Source of the DNA: Spirochaetota bacterium
Lineage (GTDB): Bacteria > Spirochaetota > UBA4802 > UBA5550
DNA length: 46,383 nt
Assembly (NCBI GenBank): GCA_050298055.1
Contig: JBNKTL010000007.1
Location: 1-46,383 of the forward strand
Direction: 5' to 3'
Of the stretch, positions 4,615 through 41,519 are shown piece after piece. Position 1 is the stretch's first letter. Each line of letters begins with the position of its first letter. The translations under genes were made by a program, and so were the position numbers. Under the pieces are notes generated by a model. That model was not told the origin of the DNA. It did not search any database and was given only the letters and a program-made list of their open reading frames with translations.

Positions 4615-5223
4615 TCATTCGTTCTCCTCTGCTTTCAAAAACTCTTCTCCGAGGCTGATCCCGGCCCTGATGGCCTTTATATTGAGATTAAGATATTTTG
4701 ACCCCTGGTATTCTTCCTTTATGGTATCTATTATTGAATTTTCGGAAACAATTGACAGATACGAAGAGAGAAAACCGAGAGAGATCATGTTGGCTGTTAT
4801 CTCCCTGTTGAACTTATCAAATGAAGTTCCGATAAAAGGGACCTTTAAGGTTTTCGCAGTACCCACCAGTACATCCACCGCTCTTTCATCGGCAATGATC
4901 AGTCCTTCCTGTTTTACCAGGGGAGCGTTCTGTTCATAAGCGGAATAGTTAAATGCCACCAGGAGGTCAAGGAGGTCACAGCTGGGAAAATAGATCTCTC
5001 CATCGCTGACGATAATATCGGAACGGGCAAATCCCCCCCGGGCTTCCGCGCCGTATGCCTGGCTCTGTGATACATTTTTTTTGTCACCGATTGCGATGGC
5101 CCGGCCCAGCAGCATCCCGGTGGAGATAATTCCCTGGCCTCCGGACCCTGCTATCCGGATATTGAGCCGTTCTATTCTCTTTTTCCCGTTATCTTTTTTT
5201 TTGCTACTCATTTTTGCCGTCAA
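4615..5223 (-). CDS. korC: 2-oxoacid:ferredoxin oxidoreductase gamma subunit
   Basis: IRIAGSGGQG, YGAEARGG motifs; last gene of a delta-alpha-beta-gamma operon. Confidence 0.9.
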   Translation of the reverse strand: MTAKMSSKKKDNGKKRIERLNIRIAGSGGQGIISTGMLLGRAIAIGDKKNVSQSQAYGAEARGGFARSDIIVSDGEIYFPSCDLLDLLVAFNYSAYEQNAPLVKQEGLIIADERAVDVLVGTAKTLKVPFIGTSFDKFNREITANMISLGFLSSYLSIVSENSIIDTIKEEYQGSKYLNLNIKAIRAGISLGEEFLKAEENE

Positions 5224-5232
5224 TTTTTTCCT

Positions 5233-6057
5233 CTACTCTTCCATCATCTTTTTCACATAGTCCCTGTATGTTGCCGTATACTCCGGTTTGATCACCTCTC
5301 TGAAAATACCTGTTATTATTTTCCCTTGCAGTTCCTCTTCGGTCATTTTTTCCGCCTTTGCCCGGGGGACACTCTTCTCCTTCTGCATTCTCAAAAGAAC
5401 TTTCGGATCACCCATATCGTTCAGTCTGCCGTACTGGACCGGGCACTGGCTTATGACCTCGTTAACGGAAAAACCGGGATGTTCTATTGCTTTTTTGATA
5501 AAATTCGTTGTCTGCATAATACCATACACGGTACTTCTCGACACAAAGGTGGCGCCGGCAGAAATTGCAAGGTTTACGGTATCGAAGGCGGGATCGTAAT
5601 TTCCCTGAGGCATTGTATGCGTTATGATGCCGGGAGGGGTTGTGGGAGCAACCTGTCCTCCTGTCATCCCGTATATGCCGTTATTTATCAGTATCAGTGT
5701 AATGTCGATGTTTCTCCTGGCCGCGTGGATAAAGTGATTGCCACCGATTGCAAGTGAGTCCCCGTCTCCCGAAACAACAATGACTTTCATGTCATGCCTG
5801 TAGAGCTTTATACCTGTGGCAAAGGCCAGGGCCCTGCCATGCGTGGTGTGCATTGTATTGAAGTCAAGGTAGACGGGCATTCTTCCCGCGCACCCGATTC
5901 CCGAGATAAAAGCAATATCATCTGCGGGTATTCCAAGATCATCAACCGCCCTGATAATGGCACCCATTATTGAACCGGTACCGCAGCCGGGACACCATAC
6001 GGTGGGGAACCTCTTCTTTAACCTCAGATACGAGTAGACTTTTGAGAGGTCATGCAT
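5233..6057 (-). CDS. korB: 2-oxoacid:ferredoxin oxidoreductase beta subunit (TPP-binding)
   Basis: WCPGCG, SGIGC, HGR, GDGD..AIGGNH, NNGIYGMTGGQ; start ATG 6057 overlaps the alpha stop. Confidence 0.92.
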   Translation of the reverse strand: MHDLSKVYSYLRLKKRFPTVWCPGCGTGSIMGAIIRAVDDLGIPADDIAFISGIGCAGRMPVYLDFNTMHTTHGRALAFATGIKLYRHDMKVIVVSGDGDSLAIGGNHFIHAARRNIDITLILINNGIYGMTGGQVAPTTPPGIITHTMPQGNYDPAFDTVNLAISAGATFVSRSTVYGIMQTTNFIKKAIEHPGFSVNEVISQCPVQYGRLNDMGDPKVLLRMQKEKSVPRAKAEKMTEEELQGKIITGIFREVIKPEYTATYRDYVKKMMEE

Positions 6058-7213
6058 AGATATTCTCCTTGATGGCGTCAACAATTTCATAAGGATTCAG
6101 TGGATTTCCGTCATACCTGTTGACTCCATGAACTGCCACACTCCGGGGGACCGTCTCCCTGACAGTATGAACAAGCTGGCCCATATTGTTTTCGGCAACA
6201 AAGACAGCCTTTATTCCCGCTTTTTCCACAATTTTTTCAAGTGGCATATAGGGGAAGGGCCAGATGGTTTTCAGATCGAAAAGCCCTGCCTTGACCCTCC
6301 TGTTCCTCAGTGTCTCCACCGCGCCCCTGGCAGCCCTTGATCCGCTGCCGTACGCGACAACCAGGTATTTTGCATCATCAGTATGATACTCATTGTACTC
6401 CCATATCTCCTGGGAGTGGAGCTCAATTTTATTTCTCAGGCCTTCAAGCCGTGTCTTCACCTCTGTATCAACCGTACTGGGGAAACCTGCCTGGTCATGA
6501 ACAAGACCGGTCATATTGTACCTGAACCCCTTTCCCAGGGGGGCAGGGTGGGAGACCATGTCCAGGCCCCCCTGATAGGGAGCATACCATTCCGGGGGGA
6601 CCTCCGGGAGGCCCCTCTTGACCTGCTCAATATTCCTGTCAATGACGAGTTTCTCCCTCATATGACCTATCATCTTGTCCATAAGAAGAATGACCGGAGT
6701 ACTGAATTTTTCCGCGAGTCTGAATGCCCTTATTGTCTTGTCATAGACCTCCTGAACGGTTGAAGGCGTTATAACAATAGCAGTGTAGTCACCGTGAGTC
6801 CCCCATCGTGTCTGCATGGTATCCGACTGGGAGAGTTTCGTGGGCAGGCCGGTTGAGGGTCCCCCCCTCTGTACATTAACAATAACAATCGGGATCTGTG
6901 TCATATACGCGTACCCGAGGTTTTCCTGCATAAGGGAAAACCCGGGACCAGAGGTGGCGGTCATGGAGACCGCCCCGGCTGCCGATGCGCCAATAATTGC
7001 TCCTATAGAGGAAATCTCATCCTCCATCTGGATAAAGGTCCCTCCCAGGCGGGGAAGATGCAGGGCCATTCCCTCTGCAATTTCCGTTGACGGAGTAATA
7101 GGGTATCCCGCGAAAAAATTACACCCGGCGTTTATTGCGCCATAGACACAGGCTTCATTCCCCTGGACAAAATAGATATCCATGTCAACATGGGGACTAT
7201 TTTTTTTCATCAT
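6050..7213 (-). CDS. korA: 2-oxoacid:ferredoxin oxidoreductase alpha subunit
   Basis: GNEA, AGYPITPSTE, QMEDE, TATSGPG, QRGGPSTGLPT motifs. Confidence 0.92.
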   Translation of the reverse strand: MMKKNSPHVDMDIYFVQGNEACVYGAINAGCNFFAGYPITPSTEIAEGMALHLPRLGGTFIQMEDEISSIGAIIGASAAGAVSMTATSGPGFSLMQENLGYAYMTQIPIVIVNVQRGGPSTGLPTKLSQSDTMQTRWGTHGDYTAIVITPSTVQEVYDKTIRAFRLAEKFSTPVILLMDKMIGHMREKLVIDRNIEQVKRGLPEVPPEWYAPYQGGLDMVSHPAPLGKGFRYNMTGLVHDQAGFPSTVDTEVKTRLEGLRNKIELHSQEIWEYNEYHTDDAKYLVVAYGSGSRAARGAVETLRNRRVKAGLFDLKTIWPFPYMPLEKIVEKAGIKAVFVAENNMGQLVHTVRETVPRSVAVHGVNRYDGNPLNPYEIVDAIKENIYA

Positions 7214-7502
7214 TGTTACTCTCTTTCTCTTTGTTTAATACAATTGCGAAATCGGGACAGATCCTGGTACAGAGGGAACACTGGTTGCACTTCTCCTGGT
7301 CAGGAAGAAAGGTGGTGCCGTCCGCTTTCTGCTCCAGGGCCCCCCGGGGGCAGATAACAGTGCAGAGTCCGCACCTTTTGCACCAGTCATGAAAAAAAAG
7401 AAGCTTTCCCTCCATGTGAGGGGCCGCAAGGGGGGCGCTTGGCTGAGAGACAAGCCCCGATTTTATAATCCTTTCCGCTTTCGGTTTAACAGGTTTTGCC
7501 AT
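7197..7502 (-). CDS. korD: 2x[4Fe-4S] ferredoxin, OFOR delta subunit
   Basis: Two CxxCxxCxxxCP motifs; overlaps the alpha start. Confidence 0.88.
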   Translation of the reverse strand: MAKPVKPKAERIIKSGLVSQPSAPLAAPHMEGKLLFFHDWCKRCGLCTVICPRGALEQKADGTTFLPDQEKCNQCSLCTRICPDFAIVLNKEKESNNDEKK

Positions 7503-26081: not shown

Positions 26082-26202
26082 TCACCAAAAAAATACTGGC
26101 AATAACTTCAAACTCATGTTATTTTTATCAGGTAAATTTTGAAGTGTGGTGCCGATCTCACTGTCCGGTTCCATAATCCGCTTACCGGGAAGGTGCGGAA
26201 AA

Positions 26203-29200
26203 ATGACAGAGAAGAGCAAAATCCTCAGTGTAGAACAACATAAGTCTATTACTCCGCTGCTCTCAGTGGCGGCAATAAACCATGAGTGGAATGCCCACTT
26301 CAACAGTGATTTCACTGTTAACCTCTGCGACAGGAAAGGGGCTCTTCTCCCTGAGATAAGAGAGATTCTGGAAAAATATACAAAAATCAAAGAGAGCGAT
26401 CTTAAAATCCAGCTTGTGCTGAATTCGGTTGCTTATCTCGCGGGTATCTTCCCCGGGGAGAAACTCATCCGCCTCTTTACTCCCCGCCTTAACCATGAAC
26501 TTTTTCTCCGGGAGATGCTTGAAATGACCCTTCCGGAAGAGAGTCAATATTTCGAGAGTTACAGGAAATACAGGGAACATGTTGATTCCCTCAGGAACAT
26601 TGATGACGGGAGTATGATCTCTGAAATTGAATGTGCCCTTGAAATGGCCGGATACGGAGGCTTCCTTTCCGACGAACGGTTTTCCGGCATGGACCCGGTC
26701 ACGGAAGAGAAAATATCCCGCATACTCCGTGAGATGAACAGCTACAAACCGGGACTTATGGAGAAGGTCACCGACAGGCTCCTTGCACTGGCGGCGGAAT
26801 ATTCAAGCATCCGGGTCAACCTTCTCAGGTTCCTGGTCATTCTCCCCTCCCTGGACTTCGACAGAAACGGGAAGGTCACCCGAAAGGTCTTCATTGAGTC
26901 GCTGAAACACCTTCTAGAATCAAACAGCTCCGCTGAGAAGAAACTCCCCTCATGGATGACCTTTGCTACCCGGGTCACTCTCCTGAAAGCCAGGGTGCTG
27001 CCTCCGGGTATCCTGAAGTTCTTTATCAGGAAGGGGGTCAGGATCCTTGCCAGGAGGTTTATAGCGGGAGAGAATATGGGTGAAGTTGCGGCTACGGTGA
27101 GAGAACTCCTTGCCCGGGGGAGGGACGTGACACTGGACCAGCTGGGAGAGAAGGTCTTTTCGGAGAGAGAAGCAGACTCCTACAGGGACAGGGTGGTCCG
27201 GATAATAGAAGGTTTTGGCGGGTTTATCAACCGGGGCGAGATGAACGGTGCCGGTATCAACAGGGCCCATATCTCAATAAAGGTATCCGCCCTCTGTCCC
27301 GATTTCAGACCCTGTGACCGGGAATATATCTATGCCCAGGTTGCCCCGAGGCTTCTTGTTATACTCAGGGCTGCTCAAAAAGAGGATGTCTTTGTGAACA
27401 TTGATGCGGAACACTCCTCGTACAGGGACGCGGTGTTCTGGATCTGCAGAAAGCTCCTCCTTGAGAGTGAAGAGTTGAATGGATTTAATCTCATGGGATT
27501 TGTTCTTCAGGCATACATGAGGGACGCATCCCGTCACCTTGATGAAATTATCCGGCTGGCTGAAACACGGGGAGATGTAATGCCCCTGAGGCTCGTTAAG
27601 GGGGCATACTGGGATTTCGAGATGATTGAGGCGGAGGCAGCGGGACAGACTCCCCTCCTGTTCCTGAACAAGGAAGAAACCGACCTGATGTTCAGGGCAA
27701 TGACAGTGAGGATACTGGAGGAGGGTGAGCACCTTCAGCTCTGTGTGGCGTCACATAATTACAGCGACCACTGCTACGCCCAGTCAATGAGGGAGCAGCA
27801 TTTTCCCGGTTCACCGGTGATCGAACACCAGTGCCTCCATATGACCTACGAAACACTCTCACGGGGAATTATAAAGATGGGATGGGTCCTCAGGGAGTAT
27901 ATGCCGGTGGGAAGCCTTATCACGGGTACAGCATACCTTGTGAGGAGGATAATGGAAAACTCTTCCCAGGCAGGGGTCCTCTCCCTCATGAGATCTCACA
28001 GGAAGGGATACAACCCGGCCTCTCCCCTGGACCTGCACAGGGAGAAACTCTCCTCTCAAAGAAAAGTCCGTGATCTGAATACGGTCTCCTTCACGGATGA
28101 TTTTCTCAATACCGTGCCCCTGAGGACCTCTCAGGCGGAAGAGCTTGAAGGGATGATAAGAGCCCTTGAAGCTTTTTCCCGTGAGAAAAGGGACAGGAGC
28201 AATACAAACAGGTATCCCGTATCGGGAAAGGCAGTCTCCATTCACTCACCTTCGGAACCGGAAAAGAGAGTGGGGGTTATAAACTTCGCGGTTAAAGGGG
28301 ATGTGCGGAAGGCGGTGAATCTTTCCGGGAATGCATTTAAAGATAAAGAGTGGTGGAGGAGAAACGAATTTTTCAGGGCGGCAGTCCTTGCCCGGGGAGC
28401 GCTTCTTTTGAGAATGAAACGGAGCAGTTTTGCCACCCTGGTTATGCATGAAGCGGGAAAGACCCTCCGGGAAGCACTTGCGGATGTTGATGAGGCCGTG
28501 GATTTTCTCAACTTTTACGCCAGGGAAGAAATAAAACTGCAGAAGAAAACCGGGGCTTACAGGCCCCGGGGTGTCTTCGCGGTGATTGCCCCCTGGAACT
28601 TTCCCGTTGCAATACCCTGTGGCATGACCGCAGGTGCGCTGGCAGCGGGAAATTCGGTCATCCTGAAATCAGCGGAACAGACACCCCTTGCGGCTGAGGA
28701 ATTCGTACGGCTCATGCATGAGAGCGGCATTCCCGGGGAGATCCTCATTCATCTTCCCGGGTCAGGGGAGGATGTGGGAAGCGCCCTGACGGAAGATCCC
28801 GGTGTGGGGGGGATAGTATTTACCGGTTCCAAAGCGGTGGGTCTGGAAATTCTCCGGATGGGTGGATGCAGGTTTACCCGGAACAGTATAGGTGGAGAGC
28901 CCTTCCCGGTGCGGGTCATCGCGGAGATGGGAGGGAAAAACGGAATAATCGTGAGCGAAACCTCCGATCTCGATGAAGCGGTGAGCGGGATCCTTACCTC
29001 GGCCTTTAACCATGCGGGGCAGAAGTGTTCCGCATGCTCCCGGGTCATCGCGGATTACAGGATAAAGGAACACCTTGTGCAGAGGCTTAAGGACGCCGCG
29101 TCAACCCTCAGGGTCGGATCGTCTCTGGATTTTTCAACATGGATAAATCCCCTGATTTTAAAGGAAGACATGAAGAGAGTTTCGGATACTGCCGCGAAAG

Positions 29201-30285
29201 CGTCTGCGGAATCGGAAAGATTCGGAGGGAAGGTCATCATCAACAGGACCGGTGAATCCCCCGCAGGATATTCCGTGGGCCCGGCAATCTTTGAAATATC
29301 CGCAGAGAGGGCACTCCTCCCGGAAAGCTACGCCTGCAGTGAGCTCTTCGCTCCCATAATCCATGTTATTGAATACAGAACACCGGACCAGGCCCTGGAG
29401 ATCATTAACGCAACAGGTTATGCCCTCACCGCGGGAATATACAGCCAGTCACAGGACGAGATTGATTATCTTCTCCCCGGGATCCAGGCGGGGAATATCT
29501 ATGTGAACAGGGGAATTACCGGGGCACGAGTGGACATTGAGCCCTTCGGAGGCTTCAAGTTTTCCGGAACAGGCCCCAAGGCGGGAGGAAGGAACTATCT
29601 CCCAGCTTTTCATCATTATGCCGTCAAAGGCCGGGTAGAGAAAACCGGATATGCAGACGAAGGGGACAAACCAACCCCGGAAAAAGAAGGGAAAAGCGGA
29701 AACAATATTACCGTTGCGGTTAAGATGATAAAATCGGTCTGCCCGGAACTCTCAGAGCTTATGGATAACTATAACAGATGGCTCGGACAAAACCTCAACT
29801 CTTTTATCAGCACTCCCCATTACAACAGGGAGGTCCCGGGACAGCTGAGTTATAATGACTACAGGATGCATGAGAAACAGGCGGTATTCATCATAAGAAA
29901 TGAAAAAATCAGCACACCCACGGCCCTGAGGCTCTTATCGGCCCTTGCCCTTGGTGTAAAGATATTCATGGAGGACAAAATTTCGGGCATAGAGTGGAAG
30001 GGGGTCTCCGGCATAGAGCTCCTCAACAATAGTGAAAAAAGTCTTCTTTCAGACAGGAGTATAAGAAAGATCGTTTTTGACGCGGAAAGTTCATATATTG
30101 AGAAAAGGATGAAAGAGATCTATGAAAAAGCGCCGGACCCGGAAATCATTAAAATTCCCTGTTCTCCCGGCGATGCTCCCCCTGAAGATGATTTTCCCAC
30201 TTACCTTCTTGAGTTTATCAATGTGAGGTCCTTTGCCATAAATACCATGAAACATGGAGCTGAGTTGAAGTTGAAAAGTCAATAA
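26203..30285 (+). CDS. putA: Bifunctional proline dehydrogenase / P5C dehydrogenase (PutA-like)
   Basis: PRODH motifs RRFIAGE, D.LGE, SIKVS, IDAE, RLVKGAYWD, ASHN, YLVRR; ALDH motifs PWNFP, FTGS, AEMGGKN, GQKCSA, PFGG; start ATG 26203 preferred over GTG 26146. Confidence 0.88.
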   Translation: MTEKSKILSVEQHKSITPLLSVAAINHEWNAHFNSDFTVNLCDRKGALLPEIREILEKYTKIKESDLKIQLVLNSVAYLAGIFPGEKLIRLFTPRLNHELFLREMLEMTLPEESQYFESYRKYREHVDSLRNIDDGSMISEIECALEMAGYGGFLSDERFSGMDPVTEEKISRILREMNSYKPGLMEKVTDRLLALAAEYSSIRVNLLRFLVILPSLDFDRNGKVTRKVFIESLKHLLESNSSAEKKLPSWMTFATRVTLLKARVLPPGILKFFIRKGVRILARRFIAGENMGEVAATVRELLARGRDVTLDQLGEKVFSEREADSYRDRVVRIIEGFGGFINRGEMNGAGINRAHISIKVSALCPDFRPCDREYIYAQVAPRLLVILRAAQKEDVFVNIDAEHSSYRDAVFWICRKLLLESEELNGFNLMGFVLQAYMRDASRHLDEIIRLAETRGDVMPLRLVKGAYWDFEMIEAEAAGQTPLLFLNKEETDLMFRAMTVRILEEGEHLQLCVASHNYSDHCYAQSMREQHFPGSPVIEHQCLHMTYETLSRGIIKMGWVLREYMPVGSLITGTAYLVRRIMENSSQAGVLSLMRSHRKGYNPASPLDLHREKLSSQRKVRDLNTVSFTDDFLNTVPLRTSQAEELEGMIRALEAFSREKRDRSNTNRYPVSGKAVSIHSPSEPEKRVGVINFAVKGDVRKAVNLSGNAFKDKEWWRRNEFFRAAVLARGALLLRMKRSSFATLVMHEAGKTLREALADVDEAVDFLNFYAREEIKLQKKTGAYRPRGVFAVIAPWNFPVAIPCGMTAGALAAGNSVILKSAEQTPLAAEEFVRLMHESGIPGEILIHLPGSGEDVGSALTEDPGVGGIVFTGSKAVGLEILRMGGCRFTRNSIGGEPFPVRVIAEMGGKNGIIVSETSDLDEAVSGILTSAFNHAGQKCSACSRVIADYRIKEHLVQRLKDAASTLRVGSSLDFSTWINPLILKEDMKRVSDTAAKASAESERFGGKVIINRTGESPAGYSVGPAIFEISAERALLPESYACSELFAPIIHVIEYRTPDQALEIINATGYALTAGIYSQSQDEIDYLLPGIQAGNIYVNRGITGARVDIEPFGGFKFSGTGPKAGGRNYLPAFHHYAVKGRVEKTGYADEGDKPTPEKEGKSGNNITVAVKMIKSVCPELSELMDNYNRWLGQNLNSFISTPHYNREVPGQLSYNDYRMHEKQAVFIIRNEKISTPTALRLLSALALGVKIFMEDKISGIEWKGVSGIELLNNSEKSLLSDRSIRKIVFDAESSYIEKRMKEIYEKAPDPEIIKIPCSPGDAPPEDDFPTYLLEFINVRSFAINTMKHGAELKLKSQ

Positions 30286-30365: not shown

Positions 30366-30451
30366 AAATCTTGATATAATATCATTATGAATTAAGTTAT
30401 GGAATAAATAGTTAAAATAAATATATCGGATGTCGTTTTTCTGGAGGTGAT

Positions 30452-31987
30452 ATGATGTATGAATTTTTAAAGGAACTGGGTATAAAGGACGTAAATTCCG
30501 GTGCCACAACAGGTTCAAGCGGAGGCTGGCTCAAAACAGCAGGGACGGAACTTGTATCGGTATCACCTGTAGACGGGAAGCCCATAGGGGCAATAGTCCA
30601 GGCGACGGAAATCGATTACCGGAAGATCGTCTCCGCGGCTTCCGGGGCATTTAAAAGATGGAGAATGACCCCCGCGCCTATAAGGGGAGAAGTGATCCGG
30701 GAGATAGGGGAAGTTCTTCGAAAGTACGGAGATCCCCTGGGGAAACTGGTAACCCTGGAAACGGGGAAGATACTCCCCGAGGGACGGGGAGAGGTCCGGG
30801 AGGCCATTGATACCACAGACTTCGCGGTGGGGCTATCACGGCAGCTTTACGGACTTACCATGCAGAGTGAAAGGCCCCGTCACAGGATGTATGAACAGTG
30901 GCACCCCCTGGGGATCGTGGGTGTGATAACCGCCTTCAACTTCCCGGTTGCCGTCTGGTCGTGGAATTTTCTCATCGGCGCAATCTGCGGCAATGCCGTC
31001 ATGTGGAAACCGAGCAGTAAATCACCTCTCTGCGCAATCGCCCTGCACAATATTATTGCGCCGGTTATTGACAGGCACGGGCTTGACGGACTTTTCAGCC
31101 TGGTCATCGGAAACGGGAATGAGATAGGGGAGCTCATGATAAACGACCGGAACCTTCCCCTCATAAGCTCAACAGGGAGCTGCCGCATGGGACGAAGGGT
31201 GGGGGAAGCGGTAGCGGCCCGGCTGGGGAGGTCTCTCCTTGAACTGGGGGGGAACAATGCCATCATTATAACCGGGGATGCGGATATGGACCTGTCAATA
31301 CGGGCGACCCTTTTCGGCGCCGTGGGTACCGCGGGACAGAGGTGTACCACAACCAGAAGGATCATTCTCCATAAAAGCATCGCGGAAAAATATACCGGCC
31401 TGCTGGTAAAATCCTACCGGCAGATCAGGATCGGGAACCCCCTTGAAGAAGGTGTCCTCATGGGCCCCCTGGCGGACAGGAACGCCGTCGATACCATGAT
31501 GAGGGTCCTGGAGCTTATCAAAGAGCAGGGGGGAGAGATCATCTATGGGGGAGGCAAGGTGAAGGTTCCGGGTCTCGATTCAGGCTGCTACGTGGAACCG
31601 GTCATTGTCAGGGCGAAAAAGGATATGCCTGTCCTCGGGGAGGAGACCTTTGCCCCCATCCTTTACCTGCTGGAATACGAGACCCTGGAGGAGGCCATAG
31701 AGATACAGAACGGCGTACGGCAGGGACTCTCCTCTGCTATCTTTACCAATTCACTGAAATACTCGGAAAGGTTCCTCTCTCATGAAGGATCGGACTGCGG
31801 GATCGCAAACGTCAACATCGGGACAAGCGGCGCGGAGATCGGCGGCGCCTTCGGAGGGGAGAAGGACACGGGAGGGGGCCGTGAGAGTGGTTCCGACGCG
31901 TGGAAAAACTATATGCGGAGACAGACCAATACCATCAACTGGGGTGACGATCTCCCCCTGGCCCAGGGGATTGAATTTGATATCTAG
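30452..31987 (+). CDS. pcd: ALDH7/antiquitin-type aldehyde dehydrogenase (piperideine-6-carboxylate / aminoadipate semialdehyde dehydrogenase)
   Basis: GLSRQLYG, AFNFPVAVWSWN, LELGGNNA, GTAGQRCTT, SDCGIANVNIGTSGAEIGGAFGGEK.TGGGRESGSDAWK. Confidence 0.88.
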   Translation: MMYEFLKELGIKDVNSGATTGSSGGWLKTAGTELVSVSPVDGKPIGAIVQATEIDYRKIVSAASGAFKRWRMTPAPIRGEVIREIGEVLRKYGDPLGKLVTLETGKILPEGRGEVREAIDTTDFAVGLSRQLYGLTMQSERPRHRMYEQWHPLGIVGVITAFNFPVAVWSWNFLIGAICGNAVMWKPSSKSPLCAIALHNIIAPVIDRHGLDGLFSLVIGNGNEIGELMINDRNLPLISSTGSCRMGRRVGEAVAARLGRSLLELGGNNAIIITGDADMDLSIRATLFGAVGTAGQRCTTTRRIILHKSIAEKYTGLLVKSYRQIRIGNPLEEGVLMGPLADRNAVDTMMRVLELIKEQGGEIIYGGGKVKVPGLDSGCYVEPVIVRAKKDMPVLGEETFAPILYLLEYETLEEAIEIQNGVRQGLSSAIFTNSLKYSERFLSHEGSDCGIANVNIGTSGAEIGGAFGGEKDTGGGRESGSDAWKNYMRRQTNTINWGDDLPLAQGIEFDI

Positions 31988-32001
31988 TCCAACAATAAAG
32001 A

Positions 32002-32171: not shown

Positions 32172-32182
32172 CCTGATATAAA

Positions 32183-34369: not shown

Positions 34370-34494
34370 AGTTTCAGTGTACTCCGGTTTTTCGTTTTGC
34401 AGATGAGTAAAGACTCTTTATGCAGACATATATTTATACGATCGGGGATTGAAAAGTATTAAAAGTTTTTTAAAAAATTTCTTAAGAGCCCCAC

Positions 34495-34522
34495 CTGGCC
34501 ACAGATTAAAACCTGTGGCTAG
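34495..34522 (-). terminator. Palindromic hairpin directly after the cysteine hydrolase stop (terminator or REP-like)
   Basis: CTGGCCACAGA-TTAAAA-CCTGTGGCTAG. Confidence 0.5.
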
Positions 34523-34523
34523 A

Positions 34524-35165
34524 TCAAGCATCCCCCACCAACCTCAAAATATTCTCCACACTCTCAACCAGAACACCAATATTTTCCAGCTCCTTCCGCC
34601 CCCGGTCGTAGAGACCGGATATGGCATCTTCCGCCAGAACAATCCGGTAATCACGCTCACTTGCCTCATAGATTGAAGTCCGGGGGCAGTTGGGGAAATT
34701 ACAGCCGGCGAAGATCAGGGTATTGATCTTCAACTTCTCCAGGTATTTATCAAGGGGGGTGTCATAGAAAGCTCCCCATCTCGGTTTAAAAATGATCACT
34801 TCATTAGTACCGATCTTTTGTATTCCGCCGGACAATAAGAGCCCGGTATTAAAACGGACCGTGTCCTCCGGAAAAAGCTCCCGGGCCAGTTCCGTGCCGG
34901 GGCTGTTCTCAGCTAAAATAAGCGTCCCCTTTTCTATGATCTCTTTTCTGCAGAGGTCCGCGTTGGAACCGTCTCTTTTATATATTCTCACAATATGGAT
35001 GACCGGCAGATGATGCTTCCTGTGGAAATCAAGGAGCTGTCTTATCCCGGGCAAAACGCCGGATGTTCCGGGGATCTCCAGGGGCTGCCCGTCAAGGGTG
35101 TCCCTCTGAACATCAATTGTTATTAACGCGGAATTGTTAAAATCAGGTTCTGTGTATTTGTTCAT
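34524..35165 (-). CDS. Isochorismatase-family cysteine hydrolase
   Basis: ALITIDVQ.D, KPRWGAFY.T.L, AGCNFPNCPRTS..EA.ERD. Confidence 0.88.
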   Translation of the reverse strand: MNKYTEPDFNNSALITIDVQRDTLDGQPLEIPGTSGVLPGIRQLLDFHRKHHLPVIHIVRIYKRDGSNADLCRKEIIEKGTLILAENSPGTELARELFPEDTVRFNTGLLLSGGIQKIGTNEVIIFKPRWGAFYDTPLDKYLEKLKINTLIFAGCNFPNCPRTSIYEASERDYRIVLAEDAISGLYDRGRKELENIGVLVESVENILRLVGDA

Positions 35166-35344
35166 TGATTTATCTCCGGTCGATTCATATGGATTTGAAG
35201 CAGTAAAATTTCACATAAAGTTTATTCGCCTAAAAAACTCGCATATATTCCGGATAAACGCAATAAAAAAAACAAGAGAAGAAGTGAATAGATGATATCA
35301 CAAATCATTACAGAATTTTATTGATTATGGGAAGAAAAGATTTG

Positions 35345-35374
35345 AGCCACAGATTAACGCGGATAAACGCAGAT
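35345..35374. repeat. Single arm of the 10-bp-period repeat
   Basis: AGCCACAGATTAA-CGCGGATAAA-CGCAGAT, related to 10827 and 36862. Confidence 0.7.
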
Positions 35375-35494
35375 GGTTTAATTCATCCCCAAAGAGAGTA
35401 CAGGATGTTATCCCAAAACCTTCTTATGCCCCTTTAGGGGGTTAGGGGGTCTTTCTCCCTGCTTCTGTTTCCCCTCTTCCTCTCCGATCCGGAA

Positions 35495-36805
35495 CTACAC
35501 AAAAGGGTCCGCCCCCTGAATTAACCTCAACCCCACTTCATCAACCCTCCCCGAATCGAGAAGCGTCTTCTCCAGAACATCCCTTCCAATTATCTTCTCC
35601 CTTGTGAAAAAGTGATAGAGGACCGCAAGGACCCTCAACCCGGGATCTATATTCTTATCAAGAATATTCATCTCAAATATCTCGCACTTGATACCCTGCA
35701 AAAAATGAACGAGCTTCTTTTCAGCTATCACCCGTCTGGCGGAAAACTTACCTGCCAGGTATTCACCTGTCCGCCTGATACCTTCTTCTGTAAAAAGTAT
35801 AATCGCATCCGGTTTTTCCATGCCGGGATAATCTATCCGCCCGGGCGATAATTGTAATGTGGATACGGAATAACCGGTCCTCACCGTTACCGGGTAATCA
35901 TCCTGCCGGACCGCGTGAAGTCCCGATGAGACCGCAGCGGAAGCCATCTCTGAAGCTGCTGACTGAACCTTCTGTCCCGCCGATCCCGCAATAACAAAAC
36001 TCATGCTCTCCTTCACCGGGCCGGAGTAGGGATTTCTGATATTATAGACTTTATCTGTTTCATGGGATGCCGGTTCTTCCGGATTTCTTACATACGTACT
36101 GTACTCTCTCTCCCTTTCATTGATCAGGGTGACCCGGGGGAAGGCGCCGGAGTCCATGATCTCTTCCAGTTCGCTCTTCCTGAACTGGTTGAACTCCCCG
36201 TAGTAGGCGGTGCAGAACTCCAGGACCTCAATAAGGGCAAAACCGCTGGCTGCAACCCCGGTGCCGATACAGCCGGTGAGGTCTTTGTCATAAAAGGCCC
36301 TCCGGGCGGAATAGGCGGCACCGTTGATGTTCACTGTCTCGGCTATCCTGAAGGGTGTCTCCCCGTGTCCTCCCGGCGTGGTGACGGTCACCGATCCCTC
36401 CGGCGTGGTGGGCGAGTGCTGTCCCCCGGTCATCCCGAAGTTGAAGTTGTTGAAGACCAGAACGGTGATACCGATATTTCTCCTGGCAGCGGCAATGAGG
36501 TGGTGGGCGCCTATCCCCGCGCCCCCGTCTCCCATGAGGACACACACGGTGAGTTCCGGTGACGCAAGCTTGAGTCCCTCCCCGTAAAGGACGCTTCTTC
36601 CGTGGAGCCCGTGAAAGGTATGGGTGGCAAACCACTGGTCCGAAAGCCCCGCGCAGCCGATGTCCGTGACAATGACGGTTTTCAGGGGATCAAGCTCCTG
36701 TTCCTCCATGGCCGCGGCAATCTTCTCCAGCACACTCCCGTGGGAACACCCGGGACAGAAGGGGAAGGGGAGCCGTGCCTCATTGATAAAAGGAGATTTT
36801 TTCAC
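35495..36805 (-). CDS. 2-oxoacid:ferredoxin oxidoreductase beta-gamma fusion
   Basis: N-terminal FCPGC, DIGC, HGR, GDG, NNFNFGMTGGQ (beta); C-terminal IAGSAGQKVQ...YPVTVRTGYS (gamma-like). Confidence 0.85.
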   Translation of the reverse strand: MKKSPFINEARLPFPFCPGCSHGSVLEKIAAAMEEQELDPLKTVIVTDIGCAGLSDQWFATHTFHGLHGRSVLYGEGLKLASPELTVCVLMGDGGAGIGAHHLIAAARRNIGITVLVFNNFNFGMTGGQHSPTTPEGSVTVTTPGGHGETPFRIAETVNINGAAYSARRAFYDKDLTGCIGTGVAASGFALIEVLEFCTAYYGEFNQFRKSELEEIMDSGAFPRVTLINEREREYSTYVRNPEEPASHETDKVYNIRNPYSGPVKESMSFVIAGSAGQKVQSAASEMASAAVSSGLHAVRQDDYPVTVRTGYSVSTLQLSPGRIDYPGMEKPDAIILFTEEGIRRTGEYLAGKFSARRVIAEKKLVHFLQGIKCEIFEMNILDKNIDPGLRVLAVLYHFFTREKIIGRDVLEKTLLDSGRVDEVGLRLIQGADPFV

Positions 36806-36861
36806 TTTTTTCCCTTAATTAAATTAATAACCTGCAACTTCATAAAAAAATGAAGATTATT

Positions 36862-36936
36862 AGCCGCAGATGCACGCAGAATAAGAAAAAAATAAATAAA
36901 ATAATTATCAGTGTTCATCTGCGTTTATCTGCGGCT
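36862..36936. repeat. 10-bp-period inverted repeat element inside the lat-OFOR operon
   Basis: AGCCGCAGATGCACGCAGA ... ATCAGTGTTCATCTGCGTTTATCTGCGGCT. Confidence 0.8.
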
Positions 36937-36953
36937 CCAAATCTTATCTTCTT

Positions 36954-38078
36954 TCATAACCCGAATCCTTCCCGCACTATCTGCTCCGGAGATATGAGCC
37001 CCCCGTCTGTCCTGTTTACCTTTACCAGTTCCTGCCCGGGACGGATATGCTTTGTGATTATCTCCGCGTAGAGCCCGAAATTCATCTCCGGGACGATGAC
37101 TTTTTTCACACCATTCAGGGATTCCCCGATCCTTTCATCAGGAACCGGGAAGAGGGACTCAATAATAAGAAGTGAACACCGGTTCCCTGTGTTCCTGTAC
37201 CGGGAGACCGCTTCCCGTGACGCCCCGGAACTTATGCCGTAGCAGAGAAGAAGGGTTTCGGCCCCCTCCTGGATATCCCCAGAGACAGATTCTATGATCC
37301 CCCTGTGCGCCCCGATCTTTTCATGAAGGTGTCTCAGCTTTTTTTCAACATTCCCTTTCTCCCTGGTCAGGTAGCCATACTCGTCGTGAATGGAGGTAGT
37401 AAAGCGGACCGGTAACCGGGAACCCATGGGAAGAAAGAGGGGGATATCCGTGGGTTCGAAGACCCGGTAGGGTGCGAAGTCCCCGCTTTCAAGGTGGTAT
37501 TTCCTGTTTATGATCTCCGGGGTTTCAAGGTCCTCCCGGTTAAAGCTCTGCCGTGACATGACCATATCCTTTGAGGTAAGGAGTATCACCGGGGTCCTCA
37601 GGGCCTCGGATATATTGAAGGCATGGATCGTCAGCCTGTAGAGGGACTCAATTGATGAAGGGGAGAGAACGGGGAGGGGCATTCCTCCGGGAGCCGGCTG
37701 TGCGGCAAAGCGGAGATCTCCTTCCGATCCCGTGGTGGCCCCTCCTGTGGCGGGGCCGAGCCTCTGCACGTCCACGATCACAAGGGGGACCTCTCCCATG
37801 ATGGCAAGACCTATGCTTTCGGAGTAGAGGCTCATCCCCGGACCGCTTGTGGAGGTGAGGGCTTTTCTTCCGGCCATGGACGCGGCAATACAGAGGGATA
37901 TCGAGGCGATCTCGTCTTCACCCTGAACGGCGATACCCCCGGAGCCGGGGATCTCCCGCATCATGCTGTTATGAATTCTCACCGAGGGGGATATGGGGTA
38001 GCCCGCGTAGAAATCACAACCCGCTGCCCTTGCCGCCCGGGTGATGATCCGGTAGCCCTCTGTAAATTCACGTTCCAT
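36954..38078 (-). CDS. 2-oxoacid:ferredoxin oxidoreductase alpha subunit (divergent)
   Basis: AGYPISPS, QGEDEI, TSTSGPG, QRLGPATG, PEMN.G motifs. Confidence 0.88.
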   Translation of the reverse strand: MEREFTEGYRIITRAARAAGCDFYAGYPISPSVRIHNSMMREIPGSGGIAVQGEDEIASISLCIAASMAGRKALTSTSGPGMSLYSESIGLAIMGEVPLVIVDVQRLGPATGGATTGSEGDLRFAAQPAPGGMPLPVLSPSSIESLYRLTIHAFNISEALRTPVILLTSKDMVMSRQSFNREDLETPEIINRKYHLESGDFAPYRVFEPTDIPLFLPMGSRLPVRFTTSIHDEYGYLTREKGNVEKKLRHLHEKIGAHRGIIESVSGDIQEGAETLLLCYGISSGASREAVSRYRNTGNRCSLLIIESLFPVPDERIGESLNGVKKVIVPEMNFGLYAEIITKHIRPGQELVKVNRTDGGLISPEQIVREGFGL

Positions 38079-38093
38079 GGGGAATTTCTCCCA

Positions 38094-39419
38094 TCAGATA
38101 ATTTCTTCCTCCAGTGAACGGGCAACAATTTTAATCCCCCGGTCGATCTCCTCCCTGCTCACATTCAGGGGAGGTCTGAACCGTACCGACCGCGGGCCGC
38201 AGGGAAGAACGAGGAGCCGGTACTTATAACATCTCTTTATGAGGGCGTCCCTGGTTTCCCTGTCCGGAAGGTCAAAGGCGCACATGAGCCCTCTTCCCCG
38301 GGGATTGCCGATATGTTCCGGATACTCCTTCTCCATGCCCAGGAGTTTCTCATGAAGGTACTCCCCTGTTTCCGCCGCGTGTTCCACAAGCTTTTCTTTA
38401 TGGATTATCTCCAGGTACCGGGCGCACCTGACCATGTCCGTGAGGTTCCCACCGAAAGTGGAGTTTATCCGGGAGGGTTCCCTGAACACGTGGTCCTTTA
38501 CCTCATCAAGCCTTTTCCCCGCCATGAAACCGCAAACCTGTGTCTTTTTTCCAAAGACGATAATATCCGGCTCTATTCCACAATGTTCACAGGCCCACAT
38601 CTTCCCGGTGATCCCCAGACCTGTCTGCACCTCGTCCACAATGAGAAGAATATCATTTTCCCGGCAGATCTCCCGGAGCTTCCCGAAGAACTCCTTCCTG
38701 AAGTGGTTGTCTCCCCCCTCTCCCTGTATGGGCTCGATAATCAGTGCCGCGATATCATCACCGGAAGATTTGAGGGAGTCCCTGATTTCATCAACGGCGT
38801 CATCCTCCATTTTTTTCACATCCTCAAGGTTTTTATCCGTAAGGGGGAAACGTATGACGGGGGAGGTTATCCGGGGCCAGTTGAATTTCGCGAAGTATTT
38901 TGTCTTTCTTTGATCAAAGGTGTTGGTGAGGGAGAGGGTATACCCGCTTCTCCCATGAAATGCGCCGGTGAAATGTATTATCCGGTGCCCGGTCTCTTTC
39001 TTTATTCCCCGGGCAAAGTTTTTCCTGACCTTCCAGTCCATGGCCGCCTTGAGGCCGTTCTCCACGGCAAGGGTCCCGCCTGATATGAAAAAGAAGTACT
39101 TCATGAAGCAGGGCGCCGCGAGCCTGTGGAATGTGTCCACGAATTCCGCCATCTCCACGGTATAGACATCGGAGTTGGCCGGTTTGGTTGACGCAACTCT
39201 TCCCAGTTTTCTGAGGAATGCGGGTTCCGTCATGGCCGGGTGGTTGTGGCCCAGGGGGAGGGACCCGTAAAAGGTGAAAAAGTCCAGGAAGAGAGACCCG
39301 GTTTTAAAATCGGCAAGGTATGTCCCCTTACTCTTTTCAAGGTCCAGGACAAGGTCGTAGCCGTCAACCAGCATGCGGCGCCCAAGTATCCCGTGTACTT
39401 CTCCCGGACTGATCACCAT
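38094..39419 (-). CDS. lat: L-lysine 6-transaminase (class III PLP aminotransferase)
   Basis: KPANSD.Y, GGTLAVENGLKAAMDWKVRKN, AFHGRSGYTLSLTNT, F.WPRI, EPIQGEGGDNHF, DEVQTG, FGKKTQVCG, SRINSTFGGN. Confidence 0.92.
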   Translation of the reverse strand: MVISPGEVHGILGRRMLVDGYDLVLDLEKSKGTYLADFKTGSLFLDFFTFYGSLPLGHNHPAMTEPAFLRKLGRVASTKPANSDVYTVEMAEFVDTFHRLAAPCFMKYFFFISGGTLAVENGLKAAMDWKVRKNFARGIKKETGHRIIHFTGAFHGRSGYTLSLTNTFDQRKTKYFAKFNWPRITSPVIRFPLTDKNLEDVKKMEDDAVDEIRDSLKSSGDDIAALIIEPIQGEGGDNHFRKEFFGKLREICRENDILLIVDEVQTGLGITGKMWACEHCGIEPDIIVFGKKTQVCGFMAGKRLDEVKDHVFREPSRINSTFGGNLTDMVRCARYLEIIHKEKLVEHAAETGEYLHEKLLGMEKEYPEHIGNPRGRGLMCAFDLPDRETRDALIKRCYKYRLLVLPCGPRSVRFRPPLNVSREEIDRGIKIVARSLEEEII

Positions 39420-39524
39420 ATATCCTTCCTGTCAGTGAGATATAATAACCATATAACACCGGGATTATAAACCGGATAAAGTTTTATGACAAGAATTATT
39501 CGCTATTAATTCCTGAATGTGGAG

Positions 39525-39797
39525 CTAATAGTTATATTTTTCCATATAAACCAATGCGTAATCTTCAGCGAGCCATTCTGTTTTCGATTCTTTGTAGCCC
39601 AGCTTTTTATAGAGGTGAAGATTTCTATCACTTTTATGGCCGGTAAATAATCTGTATTTTTTTACGGTATTCGAGTATAGATTCTCGATATATATAAGCG
39701 CCTGTCCGTAAAACGCTCTGTATTGAAGCTCCAGTATTTGATTTAAGTCCTGTTTTTCTACAATTTTTATCTTCCCCTGGTTTATTTTTTTCAACAC
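39525..39797 (-). pseudogene. GNAT acetyltransferase remnant with in-frame internal deletion
   Basis: N-terminal DLNQILELQY.AF..QALIY joined directly to C-terminal IEN...LFTGHKS.RNL.LYKKLGY; central acetyl-CoA motif A absent. Confidence 0.65.
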
Positions 39798-39894
39798 AAC
39801 ACCTGTTGAACCTTTTTTTTCAAAAATACCGCAAGTGAAAAGGACGGGACGGCAAAAAAAGTCATGTTGAAACATTTGTTTGCTGACTGATATT

Positions 39895-40740
39895 TCATAT
39901 CATCCTCTTGTCAGCGGTATTAATGGTAAATTTCCACTCCGCGGTATAGGGAAACAACCATCCTTCCTGCTGTAAGATCCAAAACAGACCCTCTTCAACT
40001 TTTAACTCCGGTTCCGACAGGAGTGTGACAGAGGAATTTTGCGGATAACGGACCATGACTTTTATGCTCACATCAATAAGCCAGCCGGAAGCCTTTCTTG
40101 ACGCCGCCAATGAAATACGCGACGGATTCAGGGCCAGGGCATACCGGGCTTCTTTTTTTCCCAGGCAGTAATCACGTATGGGCCAATCTATCCTCTTTTG
40201 GACCTGGAATTCTTCTCCACTCTGTCTGTTAAGTAAATCGGCTTTGAACATCGTTATAATATCCTTTATCTTTTCAGAATGCAGGGGGAAATTCGAATGA
40301 AATACGCGAACCCCCCTTTTCGGTGGGGGAAAAATCATCATGAGAGTTTCTCTGGATACTTCGGGATAGACCGGGTATGCCAGTACTCCCATGATTGCAT
40401 TTAATCCGTAAATCCCCATTTTATCCCTGAGAGAAAATACCGGTAAAGAACTTTTCTCTCTGGGTTTTTCTGAAAGTGTTTTTATTCTCCTGTTTACCTC
40501 TCCTATTGAAATGTTTATTGTTGCTATCAGGAGAATAATGCCAATCAATAATATACCTGCCCTCATAAACAAATAGCGTCTGTTGATTATTTTAACGGGA
40601 AGAAAAACCACCAATCCAAGGAAAGAAAGAAACGCTGTATTATAAGCAAAAAAAGTCAAAGCCCAGGCAAAAATGAATAAAAGAGCCAGCCATATGATTG
40701 TAAAAATTACTCCTAGGGGAATTTTTATTTTTTTCATCAT
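39895..40740 (-). CDS. Hypothetical membrane-anchored protein
   Basis: About 280 aa ORF with three N-terminal hydrophobic segments; no recognised motif. Confidence 0.65.
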   Translation of the reverse strand: MMKKIKIPLGVIFTIIWLALLFIFAWALTFFAYNTAFLSFLGLVVFLPVKIINRRYLFMRAGILLIGIILLIATINISIGEVNRRIKTLSEKPREKSSLPVFSLRDKMGIYGLNAIMGVLAYPVYPEVSRETLMMIFPPPKRGVRVFHSNFPLHSEKIKDIITMFKADLLNRQSGEEFQVQKRIDWPIRDYCLGKKEARYALALNPSRISLAASRKASGWLIDVSIKVMVRYPQNSSVTLLSEPELKVEEGLFWILQQEGWLFPYTAEWKFTINTADKRMI

Positions 40741-40793
40741 CAGAACCAATTAACACTGCTGTTCAGGATGGGCCGTATAAAAACAACGTATTT

Positions 40794-41441: not shown

Positions 41442-41446
41442 TAAAA

Positions 41447-41519
41447 TCTCTTCCTTCGTGATCTTCGTGGTGAATCTCTCCCTCTCCATCTTCAACTCGG
41501 AACTCGAAACTTGGAACTA
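41447..41519. repeat. Composite repeat (7-mer array + CACGAAG 9-mer module), minus orientation
   Basis: Minus strand reads TAGTTCCAAGTTTCGAGTTCCGAGTTGAAGA...AGAGATTCACCACGAAGATCACGAAGGAAGAG. Confidence 0.8.

Follow-up and report, generated by a model that had tools for sequence, protein, structure and literature searches.

A two-subunit OFOR encoded beside lat in a Spirochaetota genome is a candidate 2-oxoadipate:ferredoxin oxidoreductase

In a 46,383-nucleotide stretch of a Spirochaetota genome (the window), a lysine transaminase gene, lat, is followed by genes for an oxidoreductase of the OFOR superfamily. Which 2-oxoacid does this enzyme use? Lat, Pcd and the saccharopine enzymes work at the epsilon end of the lysine molecule, and their reactions yield aminoadipate. 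The step from 2-oxoadipate to glutaryl-CoA is known from a dehydrogenase complex of DHTKD1/E1a with E2 and E3, which uses lipoamide and NAD chemistry. Anaerobic lysine use by the KamA fermentation ends at crotonyl-CoA. The original prediction was that the lat-linked OFOR oxidizes 2-oxoadipate with ferredoxin. Judging from sequence comparisons, the alpha and beta-gamma proteins probably form a two-subunit, single-cluster 2-oxoadipate:ferredoxin oxidoreductase, acting as the fourth step of an oxygen-independent lysine route.

The gene order lat, alpha, beta-gamma was confirmed, with all three reading frames on the minus strand and a 15-bp gap between lat and alpha (Table 1). The alpha gene had been described as divergent, which is correct for its sequence (it passes no NCBIfam OFOR cut-off) and incorrect for its orientation, as the genes are co-oriented. 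From the spacing and a single sigma70-like candidate site 45 bp upstream of lat, we infer co-transcription of the three genes; seven such sites were found versus 4.5 ± 2.3 in shuffles, which is not significant by itself. Partial copies of the spacer between alpha and beta-gamma were detected by blastn at six other places in the genome. The pcd gene does lie 3.5 kb away, in the opposite orientation and separated from the lat-OFOR run by recQ and an isochorismatase gene, and the separate four-subunit OFOR is real.

Table 1 Features of the lat-OFOR locus and of related genes in the window.
Feature	Position	Strand	Characteristics
lat, L-lysine 6-transaminase	38094..39419	-	441 aa; TIGR03251 656.7 > 520.8; solved L-lysine epsilon-aminotransferase PDB 2cin, E 4e-142
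OFOR alpha subunit, domains I-II	36954..38078	-	374 aa; Pfam POR_N + PFOR_II; YPISP, Arg106; subfamily residues Tyr85, Arg225, Ser229
OFOR beta-gamma fusion, domains VI-III	35495..36805	-	436 aa; Cys17/20/51/198, GDG..NN TPP motif, DIGCxGL with Leu54; Pfam, model, fold search
Spacer alpha/beta-gamma, 148 bp	36806..36953	-	long hairpin, -43.8 kcal/mol, z -4.85
sigma70-like promoter candidate 5' of lat	39464..39492	-	11/12 consensus match
pcd, piperideine-6-carboxylate (aminoadipate semialdehyde) dehydrogenase, ALDH7 type	30452..31987	+	NF050084 758.6 > 730; separate transcription unit
PutA-like proline dehydrogenase/P5C dehydrogenase	26146..30285	+	Pro_dh + Aldedh; below PRK11904 cut-off; 166 bp before pcd
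Four-subunit Kor-type OFOR (delta, alpha, beta, gamma)	4615..7502	-	alpha passes PRK08659, 525 > 411

Domains I, II, III and VI, the list used as the criterion for OFORs in section 5 of PMC13768988, were all found in alpha plus beta-gamma by Pfam, model and fold search. The third gene carries TPP_enzyme_C (48-194) and POR (277-350) domains (Pfam), and its AlphaFold model (pLDDT 84.5) matched both beta chains (8ys5_C) and free gamma chains (3on3_B). Domain III stands neither in front of alpha nor as a free gamma with delta, being fused to beta. A ferredoxin domain was not found in the fusion protein, nor was a two-cluster ferredoxin ORF in 160 loci of the family (strict pattern, ORFs of 80-139 aa). 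Besides the superfamily motifs of Table 1, Asp93 and Asn120 are present. Conservation was counted over 123 relatives for alpha and 158 for beta-gamma: the Ser variant of the YPITP motif occurs in 11/123, and Arg106, the residue for the 1-carboxylate, in 123/123.

Family models did not place the enzyme in a known class. It failed the canonical OGOR models (PRK09627, 265 < 579; PRK09628, 132 < 364; TIGR02177, 149 < 262; TIGR03710, 289 < 483), the VorB model (PRK07119, 174.5 < 399) and the fused alpha model of IOR (TIGR03336, 55.5 and 34 vs 650.9). Its alpha also fell below the generic alpha model PRK08659 (322 < 411), which five of 15 relatives passed narrowly. In the OFOR phylogeny called for by the original prediction, the lat-linked enzyme falls in a widespread, monophyletic, unnamed subfamily, nearer Kor than VorB by branch length. 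The family is now auto-named "pyruvate/2-oxoglutarate oxidoreductase", with an estimated ~3,700 stored stretches (stretches, not genomes) in the GTDB collection.

The substrate pocket was compared with StOFOR1 of Sulfolobus tokodaii, in which Lys49b and Asp468a are each required for 2-oxoglutarate turnover (PMC5020499, Table 1). Lys49b aligns to Leu54, a position with Lys or Arg in 0/158 members (L, M, I, T or V in 158/158), and Asp468a aligns to Ser229, which is Ser in 122/123 alpha relatives. The Kor-type OFOR of the window keeps Arg where the lat-linked enzyme has Leu54. Two invariant acidic residues, Asp48 and Asp56, lie near the pocket. Across many phyla the subfamily keeps this nearly invariant pocket of its own, which suggests selection for a single substrate. 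Counting against the argument, the 2-oxoglutarate-specific KorAB of Hydrogenobacter also has no Lys49 equivalent, according to the same paper.

Among solved enzymes whose substrate is known, Helicobacter pylori OorDABC (8ys5) and the Magnetococcus marinus OGOR (6n2n) are closest in both sequence and fold, with E values of 6e-57 and 3e-45 for alpha and 1e-31 and 5e-28 for beta. They have the same TPP, [4Fe-4S] and carboxylate-binding motifs, and their substrate is a dicarboxylic 2-oxoacid. Unlike in the lat-linked OFOR, which has its gamma fused behind beta and no delta gene, their gamma is free or placed before alpha. The lat-linked enzyme fails their NCBIfam models and has Ser for Leu in the alpha' loop and, compared with 8ys5, Leu for the beta Arg. 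The Methanothermobacter VOR, if its VorA is a beta-gamma fusion, would share the fusion order, but it has a branched-chain substrate and a delta subunit, and the lat-linked alpha fails the VorB model. Two subunits, one cluster and an external ferredoxin are likewise described for S. tokodaii StOFOR1/2 (5b46-5b48; PMC5020499) and the Aeropyrum pernix OFORs (PMC13768988), and the latter turn over 2-oxoadipate as a side activity (PMC13768988, Table 1). These are broad-range pyruvate enzymes with the domain order III-I-II / VI, and their Lys49b and Asp468a are replaced in the lat-linked OFOR. The sections of PMC5020499 and PMC13768988 used here give no lysine-pathway link for either.

In the proposed route, Lat would convert lysine and 2-oxoglutarate to aminoadipate semialdehyde and glutamate, and Pcd would form 2-aminoadipate, both reactions being assigned by homology. 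An aminotransferase, whose gene is a gap in the chain, would yield 2-oxoadipate. The OFOR, with TPP and one [4Fe-4S] cluster as cofactors, CoA bound to the gamma part of the fusion protein and ferredoxin supplied externally, would then produce glutaryl-CoA, CO2 and reduced ferredoxin; the motifs for this are present. An Acd-type glutaryl-CoA dehydrogenase and a GcdA-like decarboxylase, encoded elsewhere in the genome, would lead to crotonyl-CoA and beta-oxidation. The OFOR may have a side activity on 2-oxoglutarate.

The host genome (98.3% complete) contains genes of a downstream glutaryl-CoA pathway, which the original prediction had asked for. A non-decarboxylating glutaryl-CoA dehydrogenase, Acd, is split over two contig ends (NF045552, 592.7 > 470 on C67; C-terminal piece on C69) and followed by a glutaconyl-CoA decarboxylase-like (GcdA-like) gene, 75% to the one of locus L160. 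This Acd, with a CoA ligase and an ABC transporter alongside, may act on an acid from outside the cell, which counts against the lysine link. KamA (TIGR03820), E1_dh (PF00676), HglS (PF07063) and COX1 were not found in this near-complete genome; the KamA fermentation differs in chemistry from the proposed route, and the DHTKD1 complex performs the same net step. Six other OFORs are encoded, including a Kor-type, two VorB-type and an IOR. Among 11 PF00155 hits, two were Kbl/BioF-like, one was sulfhydrylase-like and four are broad class I aminotransferase candidates (C58, C36, C2, C13); eight hits were scanned with models, and no dedicated aminoadipate aminotransferase model was among their top five matches.

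Conservation of the neighbourhood was assessed in 160 family loci read as DNA. At least 1.5 kb of upstream sequence was available for 91 of the 123 loci with a whole alpha, the Pfam scan covered 199 representative neighbour proteins, and 50 of 80 GTDB loci were mapped to genomes, longer contigs being favoured. Strict family-wide synteny with lat was ruled out: lat was absent from 160/160 loci, and the only class III aminotransferases were ArgD (L121) and an OAT-like protein (L154). Within the lat-linked enzyme's own subclade, record metadata rather than DNA indicate that six beta-gamma records (41-73% identity) apparently share a contig with lat. Five of these are on contigs under 20 kb, three also have pcd, and one has accessions 3 apart. 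Matches in contig size between lat and beta-gamma records numbered eight, versus a shifted mean of 0.77 (maximum 4). Two of the eight (12,824 and 15,436 bp) were dropped for having different sources, and two that were kept (5,177 and 15,819 bp) belong to cluster members that entered the list after the first comparison.

Informative neighbours that converge on the route recur on distinct branches within a single clade (support 0.985 and 0.941). In L014, pcd, an LKR-like gene, saccharopine dehydrogenase and the OFOR share one strand; pcd directly precedes alpha in L133 and is 1.8 kb away in L073. A decarboxylating GCDH lies beside the OFOR in seven closely related loci (L039, L044, L056, L108, L110, L111, L126) and in L158, while L160 combines the OFOR with Acd (752 > 470), a Na-decarboxylase beta and a GcdA-like gene. 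In the full set of 160 loci, each single-copy gene is expected to give 0.19-0.41 hits by chance, and 0/81 KorB-type control genes (55 carrier genomes) were within 8 kb of pathway markers. The informative neighbours cluster on lysine and glutaryl-CoA, not on varied amino-acid routes. Other loci count against the proposed function. Most have unrelated, uninformative neighbours; lat is missing from both the locus and the genome of L001, the enzyme's sister in the alpha+beta tree; L095 abuts citrate synthase; and the Bathyarchaeota locus L028 and its close relatives L093 and L099 adjoin aconitase, two of the three also ATP-citrate lyase (ACL) and NADP-IDH. Ten loci have a (homo)isocitrate dehydrogenase-like gene not assignable as C5 or C6.

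Among the 37 non-Chloroflexota carriers, pcd was present in 31 (2 partial), at least one of pcd, lat or SDH in 35 and GCDH in 30. Counting against the route, pcd and decarboxylating GCDH were missing in 13/13 Chloroflexota carriers, and a random Acidobacteriota draw had pcd in 1/3 carriers versus 23/76 non-carriers. With earlier carriers added, the former became 6/8 (one partial) versus the same 23/76, a weak association given that the kin are not independent; the Acidobacteriota control counts include one non-carrier row flagged as unpublished, G139, on which no conclusion rests. Co-occurrence with GCDH failed as a discriminator (non-carriers 18/25, carriers 31/55). The phylum sample around G066 comprised 7 genomes.

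An unlikely reading is a second 2-oxoglutarate:ferredoxin oxidoreductase, removing 2-oxoglutarate formed from the glutamate that proline and lysine breakdown releases. It agrees with the two solved OGORs being closest, the PutA-like gene beside pcd, the Bathyarchaeota context, the automatic name "2-oxoglutarate synthase" of relative P0087, and the complete genome G072, whose sole PF00180 protein is the dehydrogenase linked to the OFOR. However, the family as a whole has other residues at the positions linked to 2-oxoglutarate use, an Arg-keeping Kor-type enzyme is encoded in the same window, and 48/55 carriers, the Bathyarchaeon included, have another KorB-type beta. The neighbouring GCDH, Acd/Gcd and pcd genes play no part in 2-oxoglutarate use, and an OGOR in the lat operon would compete with Lat, because Lat consumes 2-oxoglutarate. 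Quite unlikely is an OFOR of broad range, recruited for whatever 2-oxoacid the neighbouring enzymes supply, 2-oxoadipate being only one of several substrates. Two A. pernix OFORs accept many substrates, among them 2-oxoadipate, for which their rates are 37% and 52% of those with pyruvate (PMC13768988, Table 1), and one motif set is shared by loci with C5 and loci with C6 contexts; against this stand the near-invariant pocket and the centring of informative neighbours on lysine and glutaryl-CoA.

We consider it improbable that a hydrophobic or amino-bearing 2-oxoacid (VOR-/IOR-like, or 6-amino-2-oxohexanoate) is used, feeding ordinary acyl-CoA oxidation. The hydrophobic Leu54, the two Asp near the pocket, and genes for acyl-CoA dehydrogenase, crotonase and thiolase beside the OFOR in L027, L053, L107 and L139 would fit, but the VorB and IOR models failed, the host already has enzymes of both types, the clade is nearer Kor, and Lat, Pcd and the saccharopine enzymes lead to aminoadipate. 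Least credible, and very improbable, is that lat and OFOR are accidental neighbours in an acquired amino-acid island with no common pathway. The block was probably acquired, since the family occurs in 1/122 genomes of the host order (none of 60 relatives and none of 121 other members of the order carries it) and lat in 0/30 relatives; GC is 50-55% in parts versus 44.4% genome-wide. Yet apparent co-location with lat persists in the metadata at 41-44% protein identity (P0011, P0016, P0033), and on unrelated branches the OFOR is accompanied by further enzymes from the proposed route. The 2-oxoadipate reading was partly supported: the tests of linkage and downstream pathway did not refute it, and the TCA-type Bathyarchaeota context leaves room for 2-oxoglutarate or dual use.

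A 2026 review names OFOR classes for the substrates pyruvate, 2-oxoglutarate, 2-ketoisovalerate, indolepyruvate and oxalate (PMC13768988, in the part cited). A literature search found no 2-oxoadipate:ferredoxin oxidoreductase, and the portions consulted of PMC5264521, PMC9986279 and PMC12307629 contain nothing on this enzyme. If the 2-oxoadipate reading is true, a class is added to this list, the auto-named family needs a new label, and anaerobes without KamA gain a second anaerobic way to burn lysine, one yielding low-potential ferredoxin. Automatic labels of this kind may be part of the basis on which TCA or reverse-TCA capacity is claimed from genomes.

A wider and more speculative reading, which we hold to be rather doubtful, would make the subfamily a dedicated, reversible 2-oxoadipate:ferredoxin oxidoreductase and C6 hub in many phyla. 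It would be oxidative in an anaerobic lysine-to-glutaryl-CoA route (host genome, L014, L160) and, in some lineages, would act as a synthase, making 2-oxoadipate from glutaryl-CoA with fixation of CO2 and supplying either lysine synthesis via aminoadipate or a homocitrate-cleaving module. Genes for the latter (OFOR, HICDH-like, two homoaconitase-like and ACL-like) were found in genomes mostly without GCDH. The lysine-synthesis variant is based on LysX, present in 9/13 Chloroflexota carriers in an uncontrolled count.

The lat gene (L-lysine 6-transaminase), the alpha gene of a 2-oxoacid:ferredoxin oxidoreductase (OFOR) and a third gene formed a run on one strand, placed as in the original prediction. 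The third gene was, as proposed, a beta-gamma fusion, in which the gamma domain comes after the TPP-binding beta domain. VorA of Methanothermobacter is a beta-gamma fusion. The predicted model of the window's fusion protein matched beta chains and free gamma chains of known structure, and all general catalytic OFOR motifs were intact in the pair. No ferredoxin domain was found, hence a one-cluster enzyme needing external ferredoxin is predicted. Two-subunit OFORs are described in this way in section 5 of PMC13768988 and in PMC5020499. The lat and OFOR genes are probably co-transcribed; the alpha/beta-gamma spacer formed a strong hairpin in folding predictions. This spacer (36806-36953) was palindromic, with partial copies elsewhere, one of them at 10879-10919.

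Positions of the lat-OFOR locus, of pcd, and of homocitrate-synthase-like genes at related loci.
Feature	Position	Strand	Remark
lat	39419-38094	-	passes curated L-lysine 6-transaminase model
OFOR alpha	38078-36954	-	15 bp after lat
OFOR beta-gamma	36805-35495	-	436 residues; 148 bp after alpha
pcd	30452-31987	+	passes piperideine-6-carboxylate dehydrogenase model
homocitrate-synthase-like	L108:5661-6788		between GCDH and OFOR alpha
homocitrate-synthase-like	L110:5662-6789		between GCDH and OFOR alpha
homocitrate-synthase-like	L111:5673-6800		between GCDH and OFOR alpha

The locus lay in an amino-acid catabolic island (26146-43705) with GC above the genome mean, together with a PutA-like gene (1379 aa), pcd, and a threonine dehydrogenase-like and Kbl-like pair. 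At 16250-25037, two acyl-CoA ligase genes were interspersed among ABC transporter genes of the branched-chain type.

The lat-OFOR locus is real, and 2-oxoadipate is a well-motivated candidate substrate of its OFOR. We consider it reasonably probable that the lat-linked OFOR converts 2-oxoadipate to glutaryl-CoA, CO2 and reduced ferredoxin. In the proposed route, Lat and Pcd, whose families were established by the models, would convert lysine to 2-aminoadipate, and a putative transaminase step would yield 2-oxoadipate for the OFOR. Acd and Gcd, whose genes are present, could then take glutaryl-CoA to crotonyl-CoA. In the paper library searched, which has few subscription titles, neither a dedicated 2-oxoadipate:ferredoxin oxidoreductase nor a lat-OFOR route was found.

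The OFOR family was sampled as the best 80 GTDB and the best 80 metagenome loci. The beta-gamma gene was present in all 160, and alpha was seen in 145. Record titles named Acidobacteriota, Planctomycetota, Chloroflexota, Actinomycetota, Gemmatimonadota, Fibrobacterota, Neomarinimicrobiota, Bacteroidota, Proteobacteria, Bathyarchaeota and others. With few outgroups, the family formed a single clade that excluded the Kor-type and VorB-type enzymes in the trees (support 0.985 for alpha+beta, 0.941 for beta-gamma). None of the NCBIfam OFOR models was passed by the window's enzyme; one generic model was narrowly passed by the alphas of 5 of 15 relatives. The window's family member was probably acquired, since the family occurred in only 1 of 122 genomes of its order.

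The lat gene was found in none of the 160 family loci read as DNA, which came mostly from other subclades; of 123 loci in which alpha was whole, 91 had at least 1.5 kb of upstream sequence. The nearest relatives were available as proteins only, and contig sizes and sources were compared across the beta-gamma, lat and pcd match lists. Eight contig sizes matched (shifted controls: mean 0.77, maximum 4), two of which were discarded for differing sources. The remaining six were apparent shared contigs of 19,549 bp (P0002, P0122, P0249), 11,741 bp (P0033, P0147, P0284), 11,665 bp (P0016 and P0129, whose accession numbers differ by three), 5,177 bp (P0005, P0245), 15,819 bp (P0004, P0246) and 761,695 bp (P0011, P0136, P0251). 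Their partner proteins reached the lat and pcd cut-offs. Of the two genes whose accessions fall between P0016 and P0129, one would be alpha and the other may be the aminotransferase acting on 2-aminoadipate. All six fell within the window enzyme's subclade (support 0.999), three at only 41-44% identity. Locus L001 belongs to this subclade, and lat was absent from both the locus and its genome. The lat-OFOR synteny of the original prediction was not a family-wide trait; it appears to recur in the window enzyme's own subclade, though not universally there.

Separate branches coupled the OFOR to different enzymes of one lysine/glutaryl-CoA route, in which 2-oxoadipate is the link between aminoadipate and glutaryl-CoA. 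At L014, pcd, a lysine-ketoglutarate reductase-like gene, saccharopine dehydrogenase, alpha and beta-gamma shared one strand. At L133 pcd immediately preceded alpha, and at L073 it was 1.8 kb distant. Seven closely related loci had a decarboxylating glutaryl-CoA dehydrogenase (GCDH) upstream on the opposite strand, in three with a homocitrate-synthase-like gene between; lat and pcd lay side by side elsewhere in three genomes of this group. A decarboxylating GCDH followed the OFOR at L158, and at L160 a non-decarboxylating one (Acd), a sodium-pump beta subunit and a glutaconyl-CoA decarboxylase-like (GcdA-like) gene. By chance, 0.19-0.41 matches per single-copy gene would be expected over all loci. 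The KorB-type genes of 55 carrier genomes served as a control, and none of these 81 lay within 8 kb of pcd, lat, saccharopine dehydrogenase or GCDH. A TrmB-type regulator preceded pcd at L014, and an ornithine-aminotransferase-like class III enzyme (L154:5388-6686) and a TrmB-like regulator immediately preceded a divergent member of the family.

Most family loci had unrelated neighbours (199 representative neighbour proteins scanned), and some contexts would suit a second 2-oxoglutarate enzyme (OGOR), which we regard as unlikely. AcnA was near the OFOR in Bathyarchaeota L028 and in L099 and L093, which are closely related to it, with ATP-citrate lyase (ACL) and NADP-IDH also nearby in L028 and L099; citrate synthase adjoined L095, AceK L130 and malate synthase L210. 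At ten loci the OFOR preceded a dehydrogenase scoring best, yet below cut-off, as homoisocitrate dehydrogenase, and where the contig reached further, two genes of the homoaconitase family came next, then an ACL-like pair; the dehydrogenase may be of the C5 or the C6 kind. In StOFOR1, K49bI and D468aA each abolish 2-oxoglutarate activity (PMC5020499, Table 1). These positions aligned to Leu54 and Ser229 of the window's OFOR. Lys or Arg occurred at the former in 0 of 158 members and Ser at the latter in 122 of 123, and the Kor-type beta of the same window kept Arg at the Leu54 equivalent. Family-specific residues were Tyr85 (121/123), Asp56 (157/158) and Arg225 (116/123, His in the other seven). 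If the pocket is longer and its basic residue has moved, it would fit 2-oxoadipate, which has one carbon more. PMC5020499 also describes an enzyme that is specific for 2-oxoglutarate yet lacks the Lys49 equivalent. The pocket residues speak against a canonical OGOR and do not name the substrate.

A broad-range OFOR is a similarly unlikely reading; for two broad archaeal OFORs, side activity on 2-oxoadipate is recorded in Table 1 of PMC13768988. The window's genome (98.3% complete) had seven OFOR alphas: a one-chain PFOR, a Por/Vor-like, a four-subunit Kor-type, two VorB-type, an IOR and the lat-linked one. The usual OFOR substrates appear covered by the other six, and action on some other 2-oxoacid is quite improbable. 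Chance proximity of lat and OFOR is highly improbable. Lysine 2,3-aminomutase (KamA), the enzyme of classic anaerobic lysine fermentation, HglS, COX1 and any E1 dehydrogenase, the class to which DHTKD1 of the 2-oxoadipate dehydrogenase complex belongs, were not found in this genome. Lysine is made there via the diaminopimelate route and LysX was not found, so 2-oxoadipate would be catabolic. The glutaryl-CoA dehydrogenase expected later in the route was recovered as an Acd above cut-off, split between contigs (residues 1-308 end C67, residues 311-387 begin C69) and followed by a GcdA-like gene. Acd may also serve an imported acid, given the ABC transporter and CoA ligase genes that accompany it. 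A unit resembling 16250-25037 preceded it on C67 (L215). No aminotransferase for 2-aminoadipate was pinpointed in the genome, which had four broad class I candidates.

Genome-level co-occurrence was only suggestive of a lysine route. Carriers were mapped to genomes for 50 of 80 (G061-G110): pcd passed in 29 and was partial in two more, lat was present in 12 and saccharopine dehydrogenase of the L014 type in 15. The latter two shared no carrier, as would be expected if they are alternative ways of reaching aminoadipate semialdehyde. All 13 Chloroflexota carriers lacked pcd and decarboxylating GCDH; nine had LysX, a count with no control set. In a random Acidobacteriota draw, pcd occurred in 1 of 3 carriers versus 23 of 76 non-carriers, and GCDH presence did not separate carriers from Acidobacteriota non-carrier controls.

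A conserved run (L003, L004, L008, L009, L017, L025, L033, L211, L213, L214, L217) comprised the OFOR pair, a (homo)isocitrate dehydrogenase-like gene, an HD protein, two HacA-family genes, HacB and an ACL-like fusion (SCS-beta plus SCS-alpha/citryl-CoA lyase). Among eight tested genomes with this run, seven had saccharopine dehydrogenase and seven lacked decarboxylating GCDH. The run is possibly a reverse homocitrate route. Benzoate degradation also gives glutaryl-CoA, and in G066 a bzd-type benzoyl-CoA reductase subunit N (L218:3-1507) lay ~12 kb downstream of an OFOR-homoisocitrate dehydrogenase-like cluster. A PreA/dihydroorotate-dehydrogenase-like gene directly preceded the OFOR pair at L125, L132, L137 and L138; at three of these loci a YjgF/RidA-like gene followed the pair. 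In an Anaerolineae locus (L053:723-10547), thiolase, ACAD, 3-hydroxyacyl-CoA dehydrogenase, crotonase and succinate-glutarate CoA-transferase-like genes were followed by a motif-deviant OFOR pair and another ACAD. This second ACAD was 41% like GCDH and could represent a kind of glutaryl-CoA dehydrogenase not yet recognised.
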